Positions 24,903 to 33,182 of a stretch of 64,000 bases of DNA are shown piece by piece. The first letter of the stretch is position 1; every line of letters starts with the position of its first letter. Origin of the DNA: an uncultured delta proteobacterium (GTDB lineage: Bacteria > Myxococcota_A > Polyangia > Polyangiales > Polyangiaceae). The translations under genes were made by a program, and so were the position numbers. The DNA lies in the NCBI GenBank assembly GCA_963696385.1, contig CAVOKF010000003.1, positions 672,001-736,000 of the forward strand. Reading direction: 5' to 3'. Under the pieces are notes generated by a model. The model was not told the origin of the DNA, did not search any database, and was given only the letters and a program-made list of their open reading frames with translations.

Positions 24903-26846
24903 TTACCGCGCCCGTTTGAAGAGGGCCGCCTCGAGCGTCACGCCGCGTGCCGCGAAATCACCCGTGAATCTTGGGATGTTTCCTGTCACCACGAAAGTCG
25001 GCTCGCCGACCGCTTCCGCATTCGAGATGAAGAGGTCGGCCACGCTGACCCCCTTCGCATCGGACCCGATGAGTTCAGAGATTCGCAGAACCCGAAGGCG
25101 CTGGTCGGTCGGCGAACGTCCCATCTCGACGGCCACGTCGAAGGACTCGCCGACCGCCTCGCGTGCAACCTCGATCGAGGTGCCAGGACGCGCCAGGGCT
25201 ATCTGAGCGGCCAGCCGGGCGAGCCCCTGCCGCATGGACGGCGCCCCGACGCCTCCGAAGACGCCCTCGAAGCCCTCGGCAATGGCGTCGATGGCAGCCG
25301 CCGCCAGCTCGCCACGGAGCGATCCGAGCGAAACGTGGCCGGCTCCGAGTCGCGTGGCGGCCAGCAGCGTCCGCACCGCATCGGGTCCCTCTCTGGGCCG
25401 AAGTCCAATTGCCTGAGCCTGGGGGCCCACGGCAACGTCTTCCTCGTCCTGGAACATAGCCACTCGTTCACCGACAGGCGTGGCCGCTACGAGCGCACCG
25501 AGCATCGGTGCGATGAGCGTGGGCCCCGAGCCAATGACCAGAACGTTGGCGCGCGCAGCCGCGCAGGCCTCGAGAAATACCGCCATGGGACGCGACAGGG
25601 CACCGGTGCGCACGAGTTCGTCGAACGTCACGTCGAAGCGTCGCGGTTTACGAATGGCGAGCACCCAAGATTGCGCAACCGGAGGCCCAACCGCGACCAG
25701 GCGGGCGCCCCGGGGCAATCTTCGGTCGACGATGGGCTCGCCGGCCCGAAGGGGCTCGCTCGTACGTCCGGCCAGCCGGGCGATGGCGCGACGGACGACA
25801 GGCTCGCTCGTGAAGCCTGGCTCCGCCAGAAACGACTGCCCGTTCCTGGTGGCGAGCACGTAGTCTGGCCGCCAAACGTGAATCTGAGTCACGGAATCAT
25901 CGTCGAGGAGCGGGCCCAACGGCCCGACGTCGACGAGCTCGCGAATCGCGTCGCGCGAGAGGGTCTCGAGATCCACCCCTTCGGGTGCTTCCCCTTCGAC
26001 CCGCATGGCCTTCGCTTGGTCGCGAACGGCCCGCTCAATCTGTTCTAACTGCGCATCGGAAACTTCGAATGCCTGATCCATCGAAGCCAGATCGATCGCG
26101 TCGGCCACCCGATCGACCAGGGTAATCAGCGCCAGGCGTCGTGCCGCCTGCTGAGGTCCCTCCCGCGGCGGCGATCGGCCGGGCACTGGAGCCGTCGGTC
26201 GCGCCGCGAGTGTCGATGCTGGAAGCGACTGACGCTGCGGCGCCCCCGATCGTTCAGGAGCCACCGTCACGGACCGCGGACGCGGCTCCAGACGCTGCGG
26301 AAGGCGAGGAGGCGCGGGCAACATGGGCATGGACATCCCGCGCAGCTCGGGCGCGCTTTCGCTGTCTGGATCGCGCTCGAGCGGGAAATGGCTCACGTTC
26401 TGCAGTTCTGGCGGTGGCGCCGCGGCGGACCGGGCGACGAGTCCGGCAGGCGCTGCCGACGTCAGGGGGGTCGACGGGCCCACCGCGGGCGAGGAGCCTG
26501 GATCGAGTGCTGATGTTCGCGCGACGGGTGCTTCGGCCGGTCGACCGGATTCTTTCCCGGTCGCCTCCAAACGGAGAACGAAGTCACCGATGTAGATTTT
26601 GTCGCCCTCGCGAACGAGCGTCGCTTGCGAAATTTTTCGACCGTTTACGTACGTCCCGTTCGTGCTCCTCAAGTCGGTAACGATGAAGCGTGCGTCGCGA
26701 AGAAGCAGACGGGCGTGATGCTTCGAAACATTGCCCTTTGGCAGCATCAGGTCATTGCCCTGCACTCGCCCCACGCTGATTTCACCCCCTTCGAAAGCTT
26801 CCCGTCGCTCGGTCCCTCCTTTTTCGTTGATGACGATCGTGAACAT
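24903..26846 (-). CDS. FHA domain + Pro-rich linker + degenerate CpaF/TadA (VirB11-like) ATPase
   Basis: FHA (VGRVQGND...VSKHHA...STNGTYVNG). TadA-like LGPLLDDDSVTQI, IVDRRLPRGARL, LAIRK. Walker A/B not intact. Confidence 0.85.
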   Translation of the reverse strand: MFTIVINEKGGTERREAFEGGEISVGRVQGNDLMLPKGNVSKHHARLLLRDARFIVTDLRSTNGTYVNGRKISQATLVREGDKIYIGDFVLRLEATGKESGRPAEAPVARTSALDPGSSPAVGPSTPLTSAAPAGLVARSAAAPPPELQNVSHFPLERDPDSESAPELRGMSMPMLPAPPRLPQRLEPRPRSVTVAPERSGAPQRQSLPASTLAARPTAPVPGRSPPREGPQQAARRLALITLVDRVADAIDLASMDQAFEVSDAQLEQIERAVRDQAKAMRVEGEAPEGVDLETLSRDAIRELVDVGPLGPLLDDDSVTQIHVWRPDYVLATRNGQSFLAEPGFTSEPVVRRAIARLAGRTSEPLRAGEPIVDRRLPRGARLVAVGPPVAQSWVLAIRKPRRFDVTFDELVRTGALSRPMAVFLEACAAARANVLVIGSGPTLIAPMLGALVAATPVGERVAMFQDEEDVAVGPQAQAIGLRPREGPDAVRTLLAATRLGAGHVSLGSLRGELAAAAIDAIAEGFEGVFGGVGAPSMRQGLARLAAQIALARPGTSIEVAREAVGESFDVAVEMGRSPTDQRLRVLRISELIGSDAKGVSVADLFISNAEAVGEPTFVVTGNIPRFTGDFAARGVTLEAALFKRAR

Positions 26847-27193: not shown

Positions 27194-27252
27194 GGGTTGT
27201 CGGATTCAGGTCGCTCCACATCGGGCGACCACGTTGCTCCGCGGCGGACGAA

Positions 27253-27268
27253 AGCAAGACGCGCGCCA
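27253..27268 (-). promoter_or_regulatory. sigma54 (-24/-12) promoter
   Basis: TGGCGCGCGTCTTGCT, near consensus TGGCAC-N5-TTGC, 60 nt upstream of the ATG at 27193. Confidence 0.7.
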
Positions 27269-27418
27269 AACATCGATTGGCACAAACCATCGAGGCTTTC
27301 ATGGTCTTGGGGGGACCCGATGCGTGGTCGAATGCGCAGGCAGCGAAACACGCTTCGCGCTGGGCCTCGGCACCCGGCGACTGCCGGGCTGGCGCGGCGG
27401 ATGATAGCTTTGCGCAAC

Positions 27419-28873
27419 ATGGCGATGCCCCATCCTCGCAGCGATGGGCGCGCTGCCGCCCCCTCAAGCAAACTTCCGGCGCGCACGGGACGGCTCGCCA
27501 CCCTGGTCCAGCCCGAATCGCGCCCTCGTCGTCTTCTCCTCGCACTGTTCGTGTATCTCGTGACCACGGCGATCTTCGCTGCGTTCGCGGGAGCACAACG
27601 GCTCACGGTCCATACCCCTTTCAATCACTTTGCTCTCCTGGCAGACGCCTGGTTGCACGGGCGCCAAGACCTTGCGGGTGGCCCGCCGGCCTACGCCATG
27701 AACAACGACTTCGCCGAGTTTCACGGCAAGACGTACATCAGTTTTCCTCCACTGCCGGCGCTCTTGATGCTGCCGTTCGTGAAGCTCGCGGGTTCCGCGG
27801 AGAATTTCCGCGACGGCCAATTTGCGGTGGAGCTGGCGGGCCTTGCGCCTGCCGCGTTGTTGCTGGTGCTCGAAAAGCTTCGCCGAACGGGCCGGTCATG
27901 GCGAACGGAACGTCAGAACGTCGCGTTAGCGCTGCTTTATGCCTTCGGAACGGTCTACTTTTTCTCGGCGGTCGAGGGAACCGTGTGGTTCGTCGCCATG
28001 GTCGTGGGCGCGGCCGAGGGCGCGCTCTACGCGCTCTGGGCGCTCGACGCCGAGCGACCCGCTTTGGCGGGCACGATGCTGGCCTGCGCTTGGCTGACTC
28101 GGACCCCCGTGTTTCTGACCATCCCGCTCTTTGCGTTGGAGGCGTTGAGGGTCTCGGTCAAAGGCGAGCTTGCCATGTCCGGGAGCCTCGTCGATCGAAT
28201 TCGCGCGCTCCCATCTGGCGTCGACTTCCGTGCACTCGCACGCCGGTACGCTCTGTTTTCGGGGCCGATCGTGGTTGGTTTCGGAATCGCCGCCTGGTTG
28301 AATTGGACCCGCTACGGCCGCGCGACTCCTATTTGGTTCGATCACGAGTTCCTGACGGTCGGATGGCACACGCGGATCATGAAGTGGGGCCTCTTCAGCT
28401 ATCACTACCTCGCAAAGAACCTGGGGATCATGCTTTCGAGTTTGCCGTGGCTGCCGCCGCGCATCCTTGCAACGGCCGCAGCCCCCTTTCAGATCAACGA
28501 ACACGGTCTGGCGATCTGGTTCACGACCCCCCTCTACTTCTGGGTGCTCTGGCCCAAAGGTCTCGAAGGCGACCGGCCGAGAAAGTGGCTTTACGCCATC
28601 GTGGTCTTGTCTGCCGCGATTCCTGCAGTCGGCGATCTCATTTATCAGAACTCCGGATGGCGAACTTTTGGGTATCGTTTTTCCAATGACTACTCCGCTC
28701 TTCTCTTCGTCCTCATCGCCATCGGATCTCGCCCGATGCGCCATCTCTTCACGGCGGCGGCGATCTGGAGCGTGGCCTGGAATGCCTTTGGCGCCGCCAC
28801 GTTCGACAAGGCGTCGATGGATCGATTCTATTTCCGCGATGGCTCTCAGACGATCGTTTACCAACCAGACTGA
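27419..28873 (+). CDS. Polytopic membrane protein, probable GT-C-fold glycosyltransferase
   Basis: ~10 TM segments with first-loop motifs NHFALLADAWLHG, YISFPPLPALLMLPFV, and late FGYRFSND. Family assignment is an inference. Confidence 0.6.
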   Translation: MAMPHPRSDGRAAAPSSKLPARTGRLATLVQPESRPRRLLLALFVYLVTTAIFAAFAGAQRLTVHTPFNHFALLADAWLHGRQDLAGGPPAYAMNNDFAEFHGKTYISFPPLPALLMLPFVKLAGSAENFRDGQFAVELAGLAPAALLLVLEKLRRTGRSWRTERQNVALALLYAFGTVYFFSAVEGTVWFVAMVVGAAEGALYALWALDAERPALAGTMLACAWLTRTPVFLTIPLFALEALRVSVKGELAMSGSLVDRIRALPSGVDFRALARRYALFSGPIVVGFGIAAWLNWTRYGRATPIWFDHEFLTVGWHTRIMKWGLFSYHYLAKNLGIMLSSLPWLPPRILATAAAPFQINEHGLAIWFTTPLYFWVLWPKGLEGDRPRKWLYAIVVLSAAIPAVGDLIYQNSGWRTFGYRFSNDYSALLFVLIAIGSRPMRHLFTAAAIWSVAWNAFGAATFDKASMDRFYFRDGSQTIVYQPD

Positions 28874-28913
28874 GCGAGGTCGACGCTCGGTCGAGCGAAT
28901 CGCCCCAGCCCGG

Positions 28914-29564
28914 CTACCGAGGCCGTTCGATCCGCTGGCCCGATTTGACTCCGTGCCGCCGCGCCCACCCGGCGTTCACCTCGAGCACCCAGCGCGATGG
29001 GCAACCGACTCCGCGCGCCTCGTCGTTGAGGGTCGGCGCATTCTCGACGATGCCCACCACCAAGCCGTCGAAATCGACGAAAATCAGGTCGAGTGGGATG
29101 CACGTGTTGTGCATCCAGAACCGGTGGTCTTCGCGAACGCCCAAGTCGAAGAGCATCCCCTGGTCTTCGCCCAACGATTTCCGGTACATTAACCCGCGCA
29201 TCGTGTCGTGCGGCGAGCGCACGACCTCCGCATTCACGGAGACGCCGCTCACGTCTTCGAAGATGACGCGGACCGTAGGAAGTCTGGCAGGCGAGCCGGA
29301 GGCCTCGGGATCCGCTGGACAGTCTGCGACTGGCCCCGGTGGCAAGGCGGCCGGCGGCCCCTCCGCCGTCGCACGAACGCAACGGTCGCCGGAAAGCCGC
29401 TCCGACGTGCCGGTCGCGACCGGGCCGTCGCTCGGCGGCGGCGCATGCGCGGGCTTCACCGGTTCGCCCGTGGCGGCAACCGCGTGCGCGAAATCCTCTT
29501 GCGCCGGCCGTTGGCAGCATGCCGCCCCCAGGGTCATTACGAGAGCCATCGAGACGGAACGCAT
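28914..29564 (-). CDS. DUF192 domain protein (putative lipoprotein)
   Basis: RGLMYR...GMLF...FWMHNTCIPLDLIF...VLEVNAG; N-terminal LGAAC. Confidence 0.88.
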   Translation of the reverse strand: MRSVSMALVMTLGAACCQRPAQEDFAHAVAATGEPVKPAHAPPPSDGPVATGTSERLSGDRCVRATAEGPPAALPPGPVADCPADPEASGSPARLPTVRVIFEDVSGVSVNAEVVRSPHDTMRGLMYRKSLGEDQGMLFDLGVREDHRFWMHNTCIPLDLIFVDFDGLVVGIVENAPTLNDEARGVGCPSRWVLEVNAGWARRHGVKSGQRIERPR

Positions 29565-29600
29565 GGCCCGCTCTACCGCGCTGCGCACGGGGGCGACACA

Positions 29601-29658
29601 GATAAAAACGGCACCGCATAGGGGCCCGGGGGGGGAGAGCCGGCCTACGCGGTGCCGC
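29601..29658 (-). ncRNA. Candidate sigma54-dependent single-hairpin sRNA (or leader attenuator) with C-rich loop
   Basis: CGGCACCGCGUAGG-CCGG-CUCUCCCCCC-CCGG-GCC-CCUAUGCGGUGCCG-UUUUUAUC; predicted +1 at 29658. Confidence 0.55.
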
Positions 29659-29668
29659 TCGCCTACGA

Positions 29669-29684
29669 TGCGACGAGTATGCCA
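29669..29684 (-). promoter_or_regulatory. sigma54 (-24/-12) promoter
   Basis: TGGCATACTCGTCGCA with exact GG-N10-GC spacing. Confidence 0.6.
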
Positions 29685-30005
29685 GGCTGCGCACCGAAGC
29701 GTTCTCGAGAACTTGCGCCGCGTGCCACGGAGGTCGGCGTTCAGAAACGAAATGAGCCGCCCGCCGAGGATTTCACAATTGAAACGACCCTCGTCGGTTC
29801 GATCGCTATGGAGATCCTGTGGACAATTCAGGGCTCCGCCGTGGTCGGCGAGGGCAGACCACGCGCCAACACGATGAGCTCGTCGCATTCCCCTGCCGCT
29901 TCTGCCGGTGCCGCCGCGGTCGAGGCGCGTGCAAGGCCGAACAGGCGGCTCCTGACGCTCTCGATCCCTTTCGGGACCCTCATGGGCGCTTCTGGTCTCC
30001 CTAAC

Positions 30006-31922
30006 CTGAAGTTCCCCGCCCGCCGGGACACAATGCGGCCTATTTTCCCTGGATCCGTCGAAATCGCGGCCTGAGTTACTGCCTACACGGCGATGGCTTC
30101 AAGTAGCTGGAGGGCTCTCGCTTGCTCGGGTGACGGGACGGTCAGCATGGTGAAAGTCTGGCCTTCGTTGTCGGCTCCGACGGGCGCGAAGGTGCTTCGG
30201 GTGATCGTGGCGAGATTGGCGAGAAGGGTACGGAAGCTGTGGACGGGCGCCCCGTCCTCGCTTCGCTTGGTGGCGACCTTATCGAGTGCACCGGGCGACC
30301 GGGTGGCCGGCGCGACCGGGTCTCTCGTGTTCTTGGCAGCCTGGTCCTCGTCCGAGAAGAGGACCGGTCGCCACGCTTCGCGCATGTGCCACTCCACGTA
30401 GAAAGCGAGCGTGCACAGGAAGATGTGCGCTCGGACTCGGTTTTCCAAGTGGTGGTGAATGGGGCGCACCTTCAAGTCGATCGTCTTGATGGATCGGAAT
30501 GCGCGTTCGACATTCGCGAGCTTCTTGTAATGGCGAACGGCCTGTTCGTCGCTGGTCGACTCTTGGCTCAAGGACGTACGAATCACGTATACGCCGTCGA
30601 GTGCTGCCTCCTCTGCGATGCGATCCTCGCGGAGGCGATACTCGAATGTGGAATCATGGATTTCGAGTAAGAAGTGCTTGGCCACCTTATGCTTGTTGAT
30701 CACTTTTCCGATCCGTAGCCCGATCGCTGCTTTGCCCACCAGCTTTCCGCGAGCCACAATTCTCTGCACCGCGTCGAGTTCTTTGCGTGTCGCGTCGACA
30801 AGGCTCTGGCGCTTGTGTGCGCGCAATCGTGCGAGATCGTGGTTCTTGCATGCGATCAACCGCTCACCGGCAAGTTTTGGGTCCCGCACGGAAAACAGAT
30901 TGCGTTCGTCGAAGAGTCCGAGTTGCAGAACGCCCGAGTGCACGAGGGATCGAATGCGACCGCTCTTGAGCGCGGTAACCCAGGTCATCCCACCGGTTTT
31001 GCGAAGCGACGAAATCTGTTTCTCCGTGATCATCCCGCGGTCACCCACAATCACGAATCCGTCAATCCCGAAGTCGGATCGAACACGCTCCACCTGGTCG
31101 AGGAGCGTCGTCGAATCGGATGCGTTTCCCTCGTAAACCTGGACCGCAATGGGACAGCCCCGTTCATCGGTGAGAAGGCCATAGTTGACCTGCAGCTTGC
31201 CCTTCTTGCCATCGCGGTTGTATCCGAACTTGGCAAGCGGACATTGGTGTCCTTCAAAATAGCTCGATGACAGATCGTAGAGCACCAACCCTTGCTGGCG
31301 CAGGTGACGCGTCGCCAACTTCTTCTCGATCGCGTCCTGCCGCTCGAAGAGCCAATCCATGGCGTCGTACAGGTCATCTTCGGTCGCATCCGCGACCCCG
31401 AGGTCTTCGGGCAGGGTCGTGGTCTTCCAGGCCCTCGTCGTCGCGAGCTTGCTCTGGGCATCGGTGATGCGCGCCACCAACAGGGCCATCACCAGATCGC
31501 GCTGGCGGCTTGGTTGTCGGTCGATGAGGACCTCGAGCCCCAACTTGCGAATGACTTGCCGAACGGCGTCGACCGCACCGTGGCTTTGGTCGCGCACCTT
31601 TCGGATCGGCCCGTCCGGGCCAAACAAGGGCTCCCCGCGGAGCGCTCGCCGCATCCCCTCCACCTGCTTTTCCGTCAACGACGACAGGTTCGCCAGCGTG
31701 CGCGACTTGACCCGTCCGCCCTCTCGATACGACTCGCGCAGCAGGATCGCCGGTGGAGAGCCGCGGTTCGGCACGGTTGCGATGTACATGCCTCCGCATC
31801 ATGCACATCGAATCGATAATGGAAAGCTATTTCTATCTGTTTACATGCCTACATTTCGGGTCAATTTTGCCGATTCCACAGCAAGATCGCGAACTTCGGC
31901 GATTTTGGTTCAGGAACTTCAG
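30006..31922 (-). mobile_element. IS1634-family insertion sequence, apparently intact
   Basis: Perfect 10-bp terminal inverted repeats CTGAAGTTCC (30006-15) / GGAACTTCAG (31913-22), flanked by the 6-bp direct repeat CCTAAC (30000-05 and 31923-28). Confidence 0.92.
30083..31789 (-). CDS. IS1634-family DDE transposase
   Basis: LRESYREGGRVKSRTLANLS, LYDLSSSYFEG, FGYNRDGK, VGDRGM, VERAFRSIK, RVRAHIFLC. Confidence 0.95.
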   Translation of the reverse strand: MYIATVPNRGSPPAILLRESYREGGRVKSRTLANLSSLTEKQVEGMRRALRGEPLFGPDGPIRKVRDQSHGAVDAVRQVIRKLGLEVLIDRQPSRQRDLVMALLVARITDAQSKLATTRAWKTTTLPEDLGVADATEDDLYDAMDWLFERQDAIEKKLATRHLRQQGLVLYDLSSSYFEGHQCPLAKFGYNRDGKKGKLQVNYGLLTDERGCPIAVQVYEGNASDSTTLLDQVERVRSDFGIDGFVIVGDRGMITEKQISSLRKTGGMTWVTALKSGRIRSLVHSGVLQLGLFDERNLFSVRDPKLAGERLIACKNHDLARLRAHKRQSLVDATRKELDAVQRIVARGKLVGKAAIGLRIGKVINKHKVAKHFLLEIHDSTFEYRLREDRIAEEAALDGVYVIRTSLSQESTSDEQAVRHYKKLANVERAFRSIKTIDLKVRPIHHHLENRVRAHIFLCTLAFYVEWHMREAWRPVLFSDEDQAAKNTRDPVAPATRSPGALDKVATKRSEDGAPVHSFRTLLANLATITRSTFAPVGADNEGQTFTMLTVPSPEQARALQLLEAIAV

Positions 31923-32017
31923 CCTAACGACTCCCGCTGAGGCGGCCAAAGGGCGAGGTCCGCCGGGGCGATTGGCAAGTCGAGCACGTCGAGCTTCCCA
32001 AGAGGGTCCGCTCAAGC

Positions 32018-32953
32018 CTACGCCTTGAGACTTCGCACTCCCGCCCGATGCACCTTGCCCGGAAGCGGATGACCGACGAGGCTCTCGGCGACGCGAGCGG
32101 CTTCCACGAGGCAATCCAAATCGATGCCGGTTTGGACGCCCATTCCATGCAGCATGTACACGAGGTCCTCGGTCGCCAGGTTGCCGGCCGCGCCCGGCGC
32201 GTACGGGCATCCTCCGAGGCCCCCGACGCTCGCGTCGAAGTCTCGAACCCCCATCTCGAGGCCGATGAGGACGTTCGCCAGTGCGGTCCCACGCGTGTCG
32301 TGCATGTGCATCGCCAGATGGTGCGGCGAGATCTCCGCCAACATCATTTCCAAAATGTGCGCGGTCTGACGCGGCGTCCCCACACCAATCGTGTCCCCGA
32401 GCGAGACCTGATAGCAGCCCATGTCGAGCAGCTTCGTCGCGATGACCACCGCACGGCGGGGATCCACCTCTCCCTCGTACGGGCAGCCCCACACGGTTGA
32501 GACGTAACCACGCACGTTCATGCCTGCCGCATGCGCCGGAGCGATCGTGTCGTCGAACACGGCTAGCGTGTCGGCGACCGTCTTGTTCACATTCTTCTTG
32601 TTGTGCGTCTCGCTTGCCGAGACAAACACCGCGATTTCGCGGATGCCCGCCGCACGTGCCCTTGCCAAGCCGACGGGGTTGGGGCAAAGCGCACTGAACG
32701 CGACTCCCGGTGGCGGTACGGCGTGCTCCGCAACATCGTCCGCATCGGCCAGCTGTGGAATCCAGTTGGGTGCGACGAAGCTCGTGATTTCGATTCGCTT
32801 GAGGCCCGCGGCGACGAGAGCGTCGATGAGCCGAAGTTTGCCTCGAACCGGCACCATCGATCGTTCGTTTTGCAGCCCGTCGCGTGGAGAGACCTCGTAG
32901 AGCGATGCTCGGTCGGGGATGTGATCGAGAAGGCCCACTTCGTCTGGAACCAT
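32018..32953 (-). CDS. Hydroxymethylglutaryl-CoA lyase
   Basis: EVSPRDGLQNE, SLGDTIG, HMHDTRG, GLGGCPYAPGAAGNLATED. Confidence 0.95.
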   Translation of the reverse strand: MVPDEVGLLDHIPDRASLYEVSPRDGLQNERSMVPVRGKLRLIDALVAAGLKRIEITSFVAPNWIPQLADADDVAEHAVPPPGVAFSALCPNPVGLARARAAGIREIAVFVSASETHNKKNVNKTVADTLAVFDDTIAPAHAAGMNVRGYVSTVWGCPYEGEVDPRRAVVIATKLLDMGCYQVSLGDTIGVGTPRQTAHILEMMLAEISPHHLAMHMHDTRGTALANVLIGLEMGVRDFDASVGGLGGCPYAPGAAGNLATEDLVYMLHGMGVQTGIDLDCLVEAARVAESLVGHPLPGKVHRAGVRSLKA

Positions 32954-33182
32954 AATTCCTTTCGTCCTGGTTCGGCGCAAGGTTCATGCGACTCACGGAG
33001 CGCGTGAGAAGGCGATACATTGGATGCATTTTGGACTCTTGGGGGCTGAGACGAGAACGAGGGCCCCCGCCGGCGGGGATGCGCAGCGGCCCGCCCACCG
33101 CCTGCGTCCCGAGGGTGGGGCCCGTCCCCCCTTGGCCCACGCCGCCTGGACGGTCTGTGGGCGTTGCATGTATCCTAAAGCT

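Follow-up and report, generated by a model that had tools for sequence, protein, structure and literature searches.

A putative sigma-54-dependent small RNA gene with a poly-C loop, conserved across the Polyangiales

The minus strand of the stretch of DNA analysed here, 64,000 nucleotides long and referred to as the window, carries a promoter-hairpin unit that we read as a stand-alone small RNA (sRNA) gene. It would depend on sigma-54 and an enhancer and give an RNA of about 52-58 nt, the loop of which most likely pairs with G-rich RNA. We put the probability of this reading, which is drawn from sequence comparisons, at roughly 0.6. The gene would belong to a new family of enhancer- and sigma-54-dependent small RNAs; these would be regulators of a known type, and it is their minimal form, their homopolymer loop and their spread that are unusual. 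A minimal single-hairpin sRNA of this kind, with a body that is at the same time its terminator, was put forward in a preliminary description of the locus, and the order-wide conservation, the covariation, the upstream sites and the paralogs presented below all argue in favour of it.

Results

Promoter and hairpin

The predicted promoter, TGGCATACTCGTCGCA (29669..29684, minus strand, as are all features of the unit), reads TGGCAT-N5-TCGCA, with the GG of the -24 element and the GC of the -12 element spaced as GG-N10-GC. The usual geometry of sigma-54 promoters would place the transcription start 12 nt after the -12 C, at 29658 (±2 nt). A hairpin occupies 29609..29657, after a gap of 12 nt from the promoter, and consists, according to fold and covariation, of a 14-bp lower stem, a CC bulge, a 5-bp upper stem and a 9-nt loop. 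The arms of the lower stem are CGGCACCGCGUAGG (29657-29644) and CCUAUGCGGUGCCG (29622-29609). In the minimum-free-energy fold the bulge lies on the 5' side (29643-29642), and the upper stem GGCUC/GGGCC (29641-29637 / 29627-29623) closes the loop UCCCCCCCC (29628..29636), nine nucleotides with a run of eight cytosines (C8), which from the fold and the genus and family alignments is the proposed seed. The U-tract UUUUU (29604..29608), with AUC next to it, follows directly and would serve both as terminator and as 3' tail. A 65-nt stretch folded at -38.5 kcal/mol (z = -5.55), a value that none of 200 shuffles equalled, and a GC-rich hairpin with U5 immediately after it has the build of an intrinsic (Rho-independent) terminator. 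The hairpin was not among the features listed by a consensus promoter/terminator scan, in our opinion because its 9-nt loop exceeds the limit of 8 in that scan.

The promoter motif, the 14-bp stem and the U-tract had been placed at these same positions in the preliminary description, and all of them are there in the sequence. The lower stem and the position of the hairpin also stand, but its top, which had been drawn as CCGG/CCGG with a 3-nt bulge, had to be corrected. A CCGG/CCGG upper stem with a 3' bulge is not the minimum-free-energy fold, and a G-to-A change in the upper stem, seen in 4 of 24 genus sequences, would break its C-G pair. In the GGCUC/GGGCC register the same position is U-G in 20 sequences, U-A in 4 and unpaired in none, and the correction was made because the change keeps a U-A pair only in this register. 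The better-supported register holds two non-Watson-Crick pairs, not the single one previously counted, and as previously claimed they are G-U on the minus strand only. Across the genus sequences, the tallies at three stem positions are G-U in 23/24, U-G in 20/24 and G-U in 6/24; together with the U-tract, these pairs fit the minus strand only.

By itself, the sigma-54 promoter motif is not beyond chance in the window, with one match as compared to 0.31 expected and at least one match in 28 of 100 shuffles. Since the motif alone is within chance, the case for the unit is built on conservation.

Conservation and spread

When 29400-30000 was used as a BLAST query, the 54-nt core (29658-29605) was recovered, with 92-100% identity, from 24/24 genomes of the same genus, a count that includes the unpublished genome G010 (23/23 when it is left out). 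The flanks of the core diverge and could be aligned in a few of these genomes only. Aligned by hand and with MAFFT, the genus copies all keep TGGCAC/T-N5-T(C/A)GCA, the hairpin, the loop and the UUUUCUUUUUGU tail. The GG and the GC of the promoter are invariant in all 24 sequences and the C8 loop in 23, the remaining one having one C fewer (C7), and the spacer between promoter and hairpin varies from 12 to 13 nt. In the MAFFT alignment 98.9% of the cells are paired and four pairs have changed on both sides, a result reached by none of 500 shuffles. Not only the pairing but the hairpin as a whole shows hardly any variation within the genus. The exact pattern of upper stem and loop, scanned against one genome per species, was found in 22 records titled as Polyangiaceae, Myxococcales or delta-proteobacterium MAGs; the NCBI lineage of the family is Myxococcota; Polyangia; Polyangiales.

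Two covariance models were used for the wider searches, one made from the genus alignment from promoter to tail (R1) and one from 52 diverse matches (R2). Full-length matches of R1 to promoter and hairpin came from 79 of the 151 genomes sampled for the family, which going by the titles of its records is the Polyangiaceae, and represent 55 of its 89 genera. R2 gave full-length matches in 68 of 151 genomes sampled from the order, distributed over the families f1 (19/23), f11 (9/9), f17 (19/23), f22 (12/22), f3 (3/15), f9 (4/23) and f13 (1/1). Family f7 (0/10) and the smaller families of the order had no match under the strict filters with which all genome samples were scored, where not being found does not mean being absent. 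In the class sample, four genomes of other orders matched R2 (f63, 3/18; f76, 1/4), and when checked by eye these have TGGCAC-N5-TTGCT, a C8-9 loop and U7-8. In the phylum sample there were 10 matching genomes out of 151, all 10 from the Polyangiales, and none outside that order.

In the alignment of the 52 sequences 95.2% of the cells are paired, and both partners have changed in 16 of 19 pairs, which none of 500 shuffles reached, and registers slid along the same alignment gave at most 41%. This alignment was fitted to the model, which favours structure, and the MAFFT alignment of the genus is the independent check. Stem covariation in relatives, which the preliminary description had proposed as a check, is strong in both. 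It had also named a lack of conserved spacing between promoter and hairpin as a refutation; in 94 of 98 distinct sequences the core stem has its first G 13-15 nt from the -12 C. Of 100 distinct family sequences, 99 have 7-10 cytosines in their longest C run and 72 have TGGCAC or TGGCAT as the -24 hexamer, and at least seven T are found among the 10 nt past the stem in 89 of 98. The sequence flanking the C-run is CUCC in the primary type only, and GUC, GCC or UUC in other types. Judged from the alignments, selection is acting both on the pairing of the stem and on the sequence of the loop. Some diverged copies have no -24 GG. At L110, L120, L132 and L133 it is replaced (by TTTCAC or TTTCCG, for example), with hairpin, tail and -12 GC retained; copies of this kind may have decayed or may rely on a different promoter.

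Several large genomes carry more than one copy, as found with R1: nine in G110, seven in G166, five in G164 and four in G091. The extra copies lie among unrelated genes and have the same upstream sites. In the genome from which the window comes (G000), BLAST found no copy besides the locus itself, and the covariance model found a second one (G000:C7:1195549-1195637; locus L136:1501-1589), which has kept the structure and is too diverged in sequence for BLAST. The second copy has TGGCAC-N5-CTGCA, a hairpin with a C7 loop, U8 and one TTTCA-N4-TGCAC site nearer to the promoter. Its nearest confirmed downstream gene, for GTP cyclohydrolase I, is convergent, and the lineage to which the copy belongs, the second old one within the family, is seen in many genera. 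Tandem copies, 100-250 nt apart and each with its own sigma-54 promoter, were observed at L187:349-543, L188:315-590 and L189:299-632. In L187 the first hairpin is without a U-tail and the second without a -24 element, and this pair may be one two-hairpin RNA. The module is also kept, after a purF-like gene, in a single-contig genome of the family of 1.8 Mb (G066; locus L083, G066:C1:1212087-1212198), where the C-run is longer and partly masked.

Upstream sites and activators

Two palindromic sites of the form TTTCA-N4-TGAAA lie upstream of the promoter and are putative sites for an enhancer-binding protein. Site 1, TTTCAATTGTGAAA (29771..29784, minus strand), is centred at about -120, and site 2, TTTCGTTTCTGAAC (29739..29752, minus strand), 32 bp after it at about -88. 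Site 1 is conserved in the relatives within the genus, in members of the family, in the paralogs of the large genomes and in G066, the last having two near-perfect sites 31 bp apart. All copies, the paralogs included, have one or two such palindromes (with TTGCA...TGCAA as variants) approximately 85-125 nt before the predicted start. Among 125 sigma-54-like sites in G000, this locus is the only one with a strict TTTCA-N4-TGAAA match upstream. The conserved tandem arrangement would fit an enhancer-binding protein. Another palindrome, TTCTCGAGAA (29702..29711, minus strand, centre at about -49), lies between the upstream sites and the promoter, and blocks of TCTCGAGAAA that resemble it are found at the equivalent position in the G110 and G166 paralogs. 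A guess would be that it is the site of a bending protein or of a second regulator.

There is one rpoN gene in G000 and about 44 genes for sigma-54 activators. With its GG and GC ten bases apart and conserved, and with rpoN present, the predicted promoter has what is expected of a sigma-54 promoter, for which TGGCAC-N5-TTGCW is the reference context. A tblastn search with the sigma-54 activator domain (E up to 1e-8) gave no match within approximately 1.5-2 kb at any of 129 loci with family members. The small genome G066 has only four intact sigma-54 activators, two further activator genes being broken, and each of the four has a clear ortholog in G000, with 62-74% identity. These orthologs are located at C7:1217276-1218694, C3:58567-60027, C3:426305-427651 and C5:397893-398954. 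The four activators and their orthologs make up a shortlist from which none is singled out. Three of the four orthologs in G000 sit amid unrelated housekeeping genes, which gives no clue to the signal.

Expression and target scans

Of only four words sampled from the core, two were present in each of 22 sequencing runs, and 10 of these runs are recorded as RNA. Five contigs of 187-365 nt, from four metatranscriptome runs (X2, X4, X13 and X14), cover 29604-29658. They run past the core at both ends, into sequence resembling the sigma-54 promoters and the tails of relatives, and since they extend into the flanks they may be DNA or longer RNAs.

The loop had been called anti-Shine-Dalgarno-like in the preliminary description. 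The C-rich run holds up, being 7-10 cytosines long family-wide, but there is no conserved anti-Shine-Dalgarno sequence of the CCUCC type and the scans identified no target; the anti-Shine-Dalgarno reading appears weak. In G000, 60 of 780 runs of at least seven G lie 3-18 nt before a crude ORF start, as compared to 44 of 780 for at least seven C, and the figures for GGAGG and CCTCC are 1574 and 1023 of 15433. Near the crude ORF starts of this genome there is no enrichment of G-runs beyond the Shine-Dalgarno-like bias. The 12-nt complement of the loop, with at most one mismatch, occurs 41 times in G000, the gene itself included, and five of these are near a crude ORF start. In G066 there were 507 matches to a G7 homopolymer, too many to be of use. 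Hfq was not found in G000, which is 96% complete, and this fits a chaperone-free G-C-rich pairing, as in 6C.

It is conceivable, if unlikely, that the RNA does not act through pairing of its own with a message, and that the poly-C loop is instead bound by a KH-type or other C-binding protein, or makes the RNA a sponge for G-rich RNA. Such a role would agree with the near-invariance of the hairpin in the genus, with the many copies in large genomes and the retention in one of 1.8 Mb, and with crude scans in which no class of mRNA targets was enriched. Across the family, however, the stems vary freely with covariation, and the constraint on sequence is limited to the loop and the upper stem. Known sRNAs with C-rich loops act by pairing, and no candidate protein was identified.

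Gene neighbourhood

On the minus strand of the window, a purF-like gene (35649-34054) is followed by a small ORF, an HMGL-like gene of the HMG-CoA lyase family (32018..32983; Pfam PF00682), an IS element, the module and a DUF192 gene (28914..29564; PF02643, 3e-29), the product of which has a lipoprotein-like N-terminus. Further on are a membrane-protein-like ORF of 558 aa without a Pfam match (27197-28873, plus strand), convergent with the DUF192 gene, and a protein of 647 aa (24903-26846, minus strand) that contains an FHA domain and weakly matches the type II/IV secretion ATPase family. The IS element, 1929 bp (30001..31929, minus strand) with a DDE_Tnp_1 transposase of 568 aa by Pfam, lies between the HMGL-like gene and the upstream region of the sRNA gene, and the genome contains at least four complete copies of it, besides several fragments. 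It lies about 215 bp upstream of the first upstream site, with approximately 340 nt of unique DNA before promoter and hairpin. The closest relative, G003, is collinear and has no IS at this site, which implies that the insertion is recent and that it left the module intact. In most genera the best-scoring copy is found in one and the same syntenic slot, and the HMGL-like gene is upstream at 20 of 52 aligned matches.

The DUF192 gene could be taken to be what the promoter serves, the hairpin then being a leader or attenuator, a regulated promoter-proximal terminator that is overridden by some factor. This was the alternative offered in the preliminary description, where the start of the gene had been put correctly at about 40 nt downstream (the ATG is at 29564, 40 nt past the U-tract). 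Of the 52 aligned matches, 26, spread over many genera, have DUF192 as the next ORF on the same strand, and the primary copy always has the DUF192 start approximately 40-60 nt past the U-tract on the same strand. The paralogous copies in unrelated places speak against it. At six copies a Pfam-confirmed convergent gene is directly downstream, encoding a GH3 glycosidase, a P450-Rieske protein, a methyltransferase, an agmatine-deiminase-like protein, an anthranilate-synthase-like protein and an alpha/beta hydrolase. A promoter with a terminator in its path and, behind that, a gene on the opposite strand cannot be the leader of this gene, and with at least six copies facing a convergent gene the unit would stand alone and not be a DUF192 leader; other copies precede unrelated genes. 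Furthermore, the stem begins 1-3 nt after the predicted start, which leaves no upstream RNA for an antiterminator, and an attenuator has no role for the invariant C-run.

The DUF192 gene also seems to have a promoter of its own. In the alignment it can be read as a sigma-70-like promoter, GTGTCG and TAGAGC 18 nt apart (29570..29599, minus strand), with the ATG 5 nt on. The genus alignment gives TTGTCG-N17/18-TAnnnn in the relatives, with the ATG 6-9 nt later and no GGAGG before it. Its own promoter, with the ATG close behind and no Shine-Dalgarno sequence, suggests that the DUF192 mRNA is leaderless. The putative promoter overlaps the tail of the sRNA. All in all, we find the attenuator quite improbable, and the primary copy may have an additional role in cis on DUF192.

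In several genera the stop codon of the HMGL-like gene is within a few bases of the upstream sites and there is no other terminator before the hairpin, which makes it very likely that the hairpin also ends the HMGL-like transcript. That it does nothing else, and that the sigma-54 motif, in itself within chance in the window, is incidental, is very improbable: GG/GC, the spacing and the tandem sites would not have been maintained across an order and among paralogs if the motif were incidental, a plain terminator needs no invariant C7-10 loop, and in G000 the IS separates the HMGL-like gene from an intact module. The idea that the inverted repeat, long, perfect-looking and multi-copy in some genomes, acts as DNA, as a protein-binding palindrome or a mobile repeat, is hardly credible, with G-U pairs that would be A-C mismatches on the other strand, a U-tract and a promoter that impose one orientation, and a single BLAST copy in G000 besides which the second has diverged in sequence and kept its structure.

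Discussion

The stand-alone sRNA gene that we favour could work as follows. A putative enhancer-binding protein would bind the two TTTCA-N4-TGAAA sites at approximately -120 and -88 and, when bound, switch on sigma-54 RNA polymerase at TGGCAT-N5-TCGCA. Transcription would start 1-3 nt before the stable GC-rich hairpin and end at the U-tract right behind it, and the whole RNA would amount to a single terminator hairpin, its 5' end paired and its 3' end a U-tail. The eight consecutive cytosines exposed in the 9-nt loop would do the work; acting as a seed, they most likely pair without Hfq with G-runs of other RNAs and alter the translation or stability of these. The hairpin would probably also stop transcripts arriving from the upstream gene.

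The wide distribution may suggest a larger role. Rather speculatively, the module could constitute the output of a single ancient signalling pathway in the Polyangia, a master post-transcriptional switch and a counterpart of Pxr or Qrr, using a code of C8 against G-runs or the capture of a protein. What points in this direction is that the module is kept in a genome of 1.8 Mb together with four intact activators, and that genomes of 12-14 Mb have up to nine siblings, including tandem or two-hairpin forms. We consider this a doubtful extension of the sRNA gene itself.

In the full-text literature, subscription journals being outside its coverage, we found no sRNA described for Sorangium or Polyangiales, and Pxr was the only regulatory RNA of myxobacteria described in the literature searched. 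Polyangiales is an order that includes large producers of natural products. The family would give it an order-wide sRNA whose predicted features are a recognisable promoter, enhancer sites and a seed made of one repeated base. A covariance model is available for annotating the family, and four candidate activators are shortlisted. At 55 nt, the RNA lends itself to deletion, overexpression or loop mutation, which makes it a simple test system.

In our search of Rfam 15 there were 0 matches at E up to 10 in 28800-30400. Five loci with other members gave two matches at E up to 1, elsewhere in the loci and below gathering. The closest case in the myxobacteria is Pxr of Myxococcus (RF01812), described as a sigma-54-dependent sRNA with an essential cytosine in a loop (PMC5684412). 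Like the new RNA, it comes from myxobacteria and has a predicted sigma-54 promoter with an enhancer region upstream, and paralogs are reported from some species (PMC5684412, PMC5568312). The promoter and enhancer region are shared with Pxr at the level of sequence only and are common to many unrelated sRNAs. Pxr has three stem-loops over about 109 positions, whereas the new RNA has one hairpin, and it lies directly after the gene of its NtrC-like activator, pxrR, while the new RNA has no activator gene within approximately 1.5-2 kb at 129 loci. Pxr is reported as having arisen within, or as being confined to, the Cystobacterineae (PMC8538405), in contrast to the Polyangiales for the new RNA. 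Our own search with RF01812 in 151 genomes of the phylum had no match, controls included, and says nothing on the range of Pxr.

Exposed C-rich loops are known from RepG and from 6C, and the new RNA has a loop of this type, 9 nt with C8 here and C7-10 in 99 of 100 family sequences. RepG of Helicobacter pylori is not known to depend on sigma-54. Its seed is described as the C/U-rich loop of the terminator hairpin, which targets a homopolymeric G-repeat in the leader of an mRNA (PMC8295292). Unlike the new RNA, which is one hairpin, RepG includes a second stem-loop; it is single-copy and has a defined target. Actinobacteria, in which 6C (B11) is found, are not known to have sigma-54. The C-rich loops of 6C are described as pairing with G-rich ribosome-binding regions without a chaperone, and the likeness lies in these loops and in a high-GC organism without Hfq (PMC6486639). 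The 6C RNA has several loops and comes from a different phylum; the new RNA is a single hairpin without a match in Rfam.

The Qrr RNAs of Vibrio are about 100 nt long with four stem-loops and depend on Hfq, and the site of their activator LuxO is TTGCA-N3-TGCAA. The new RNA is in contrast a single hairpin of 55 nt, no Hfq was found in its genome, and its upstream sites have a 4-nt spacer. In their organisation the two are alike, the Qrr RNAs being described as multi-copy siblings, each with its own sigma-54 promoter and with palindromic activator sites upstream (PMC10162802).
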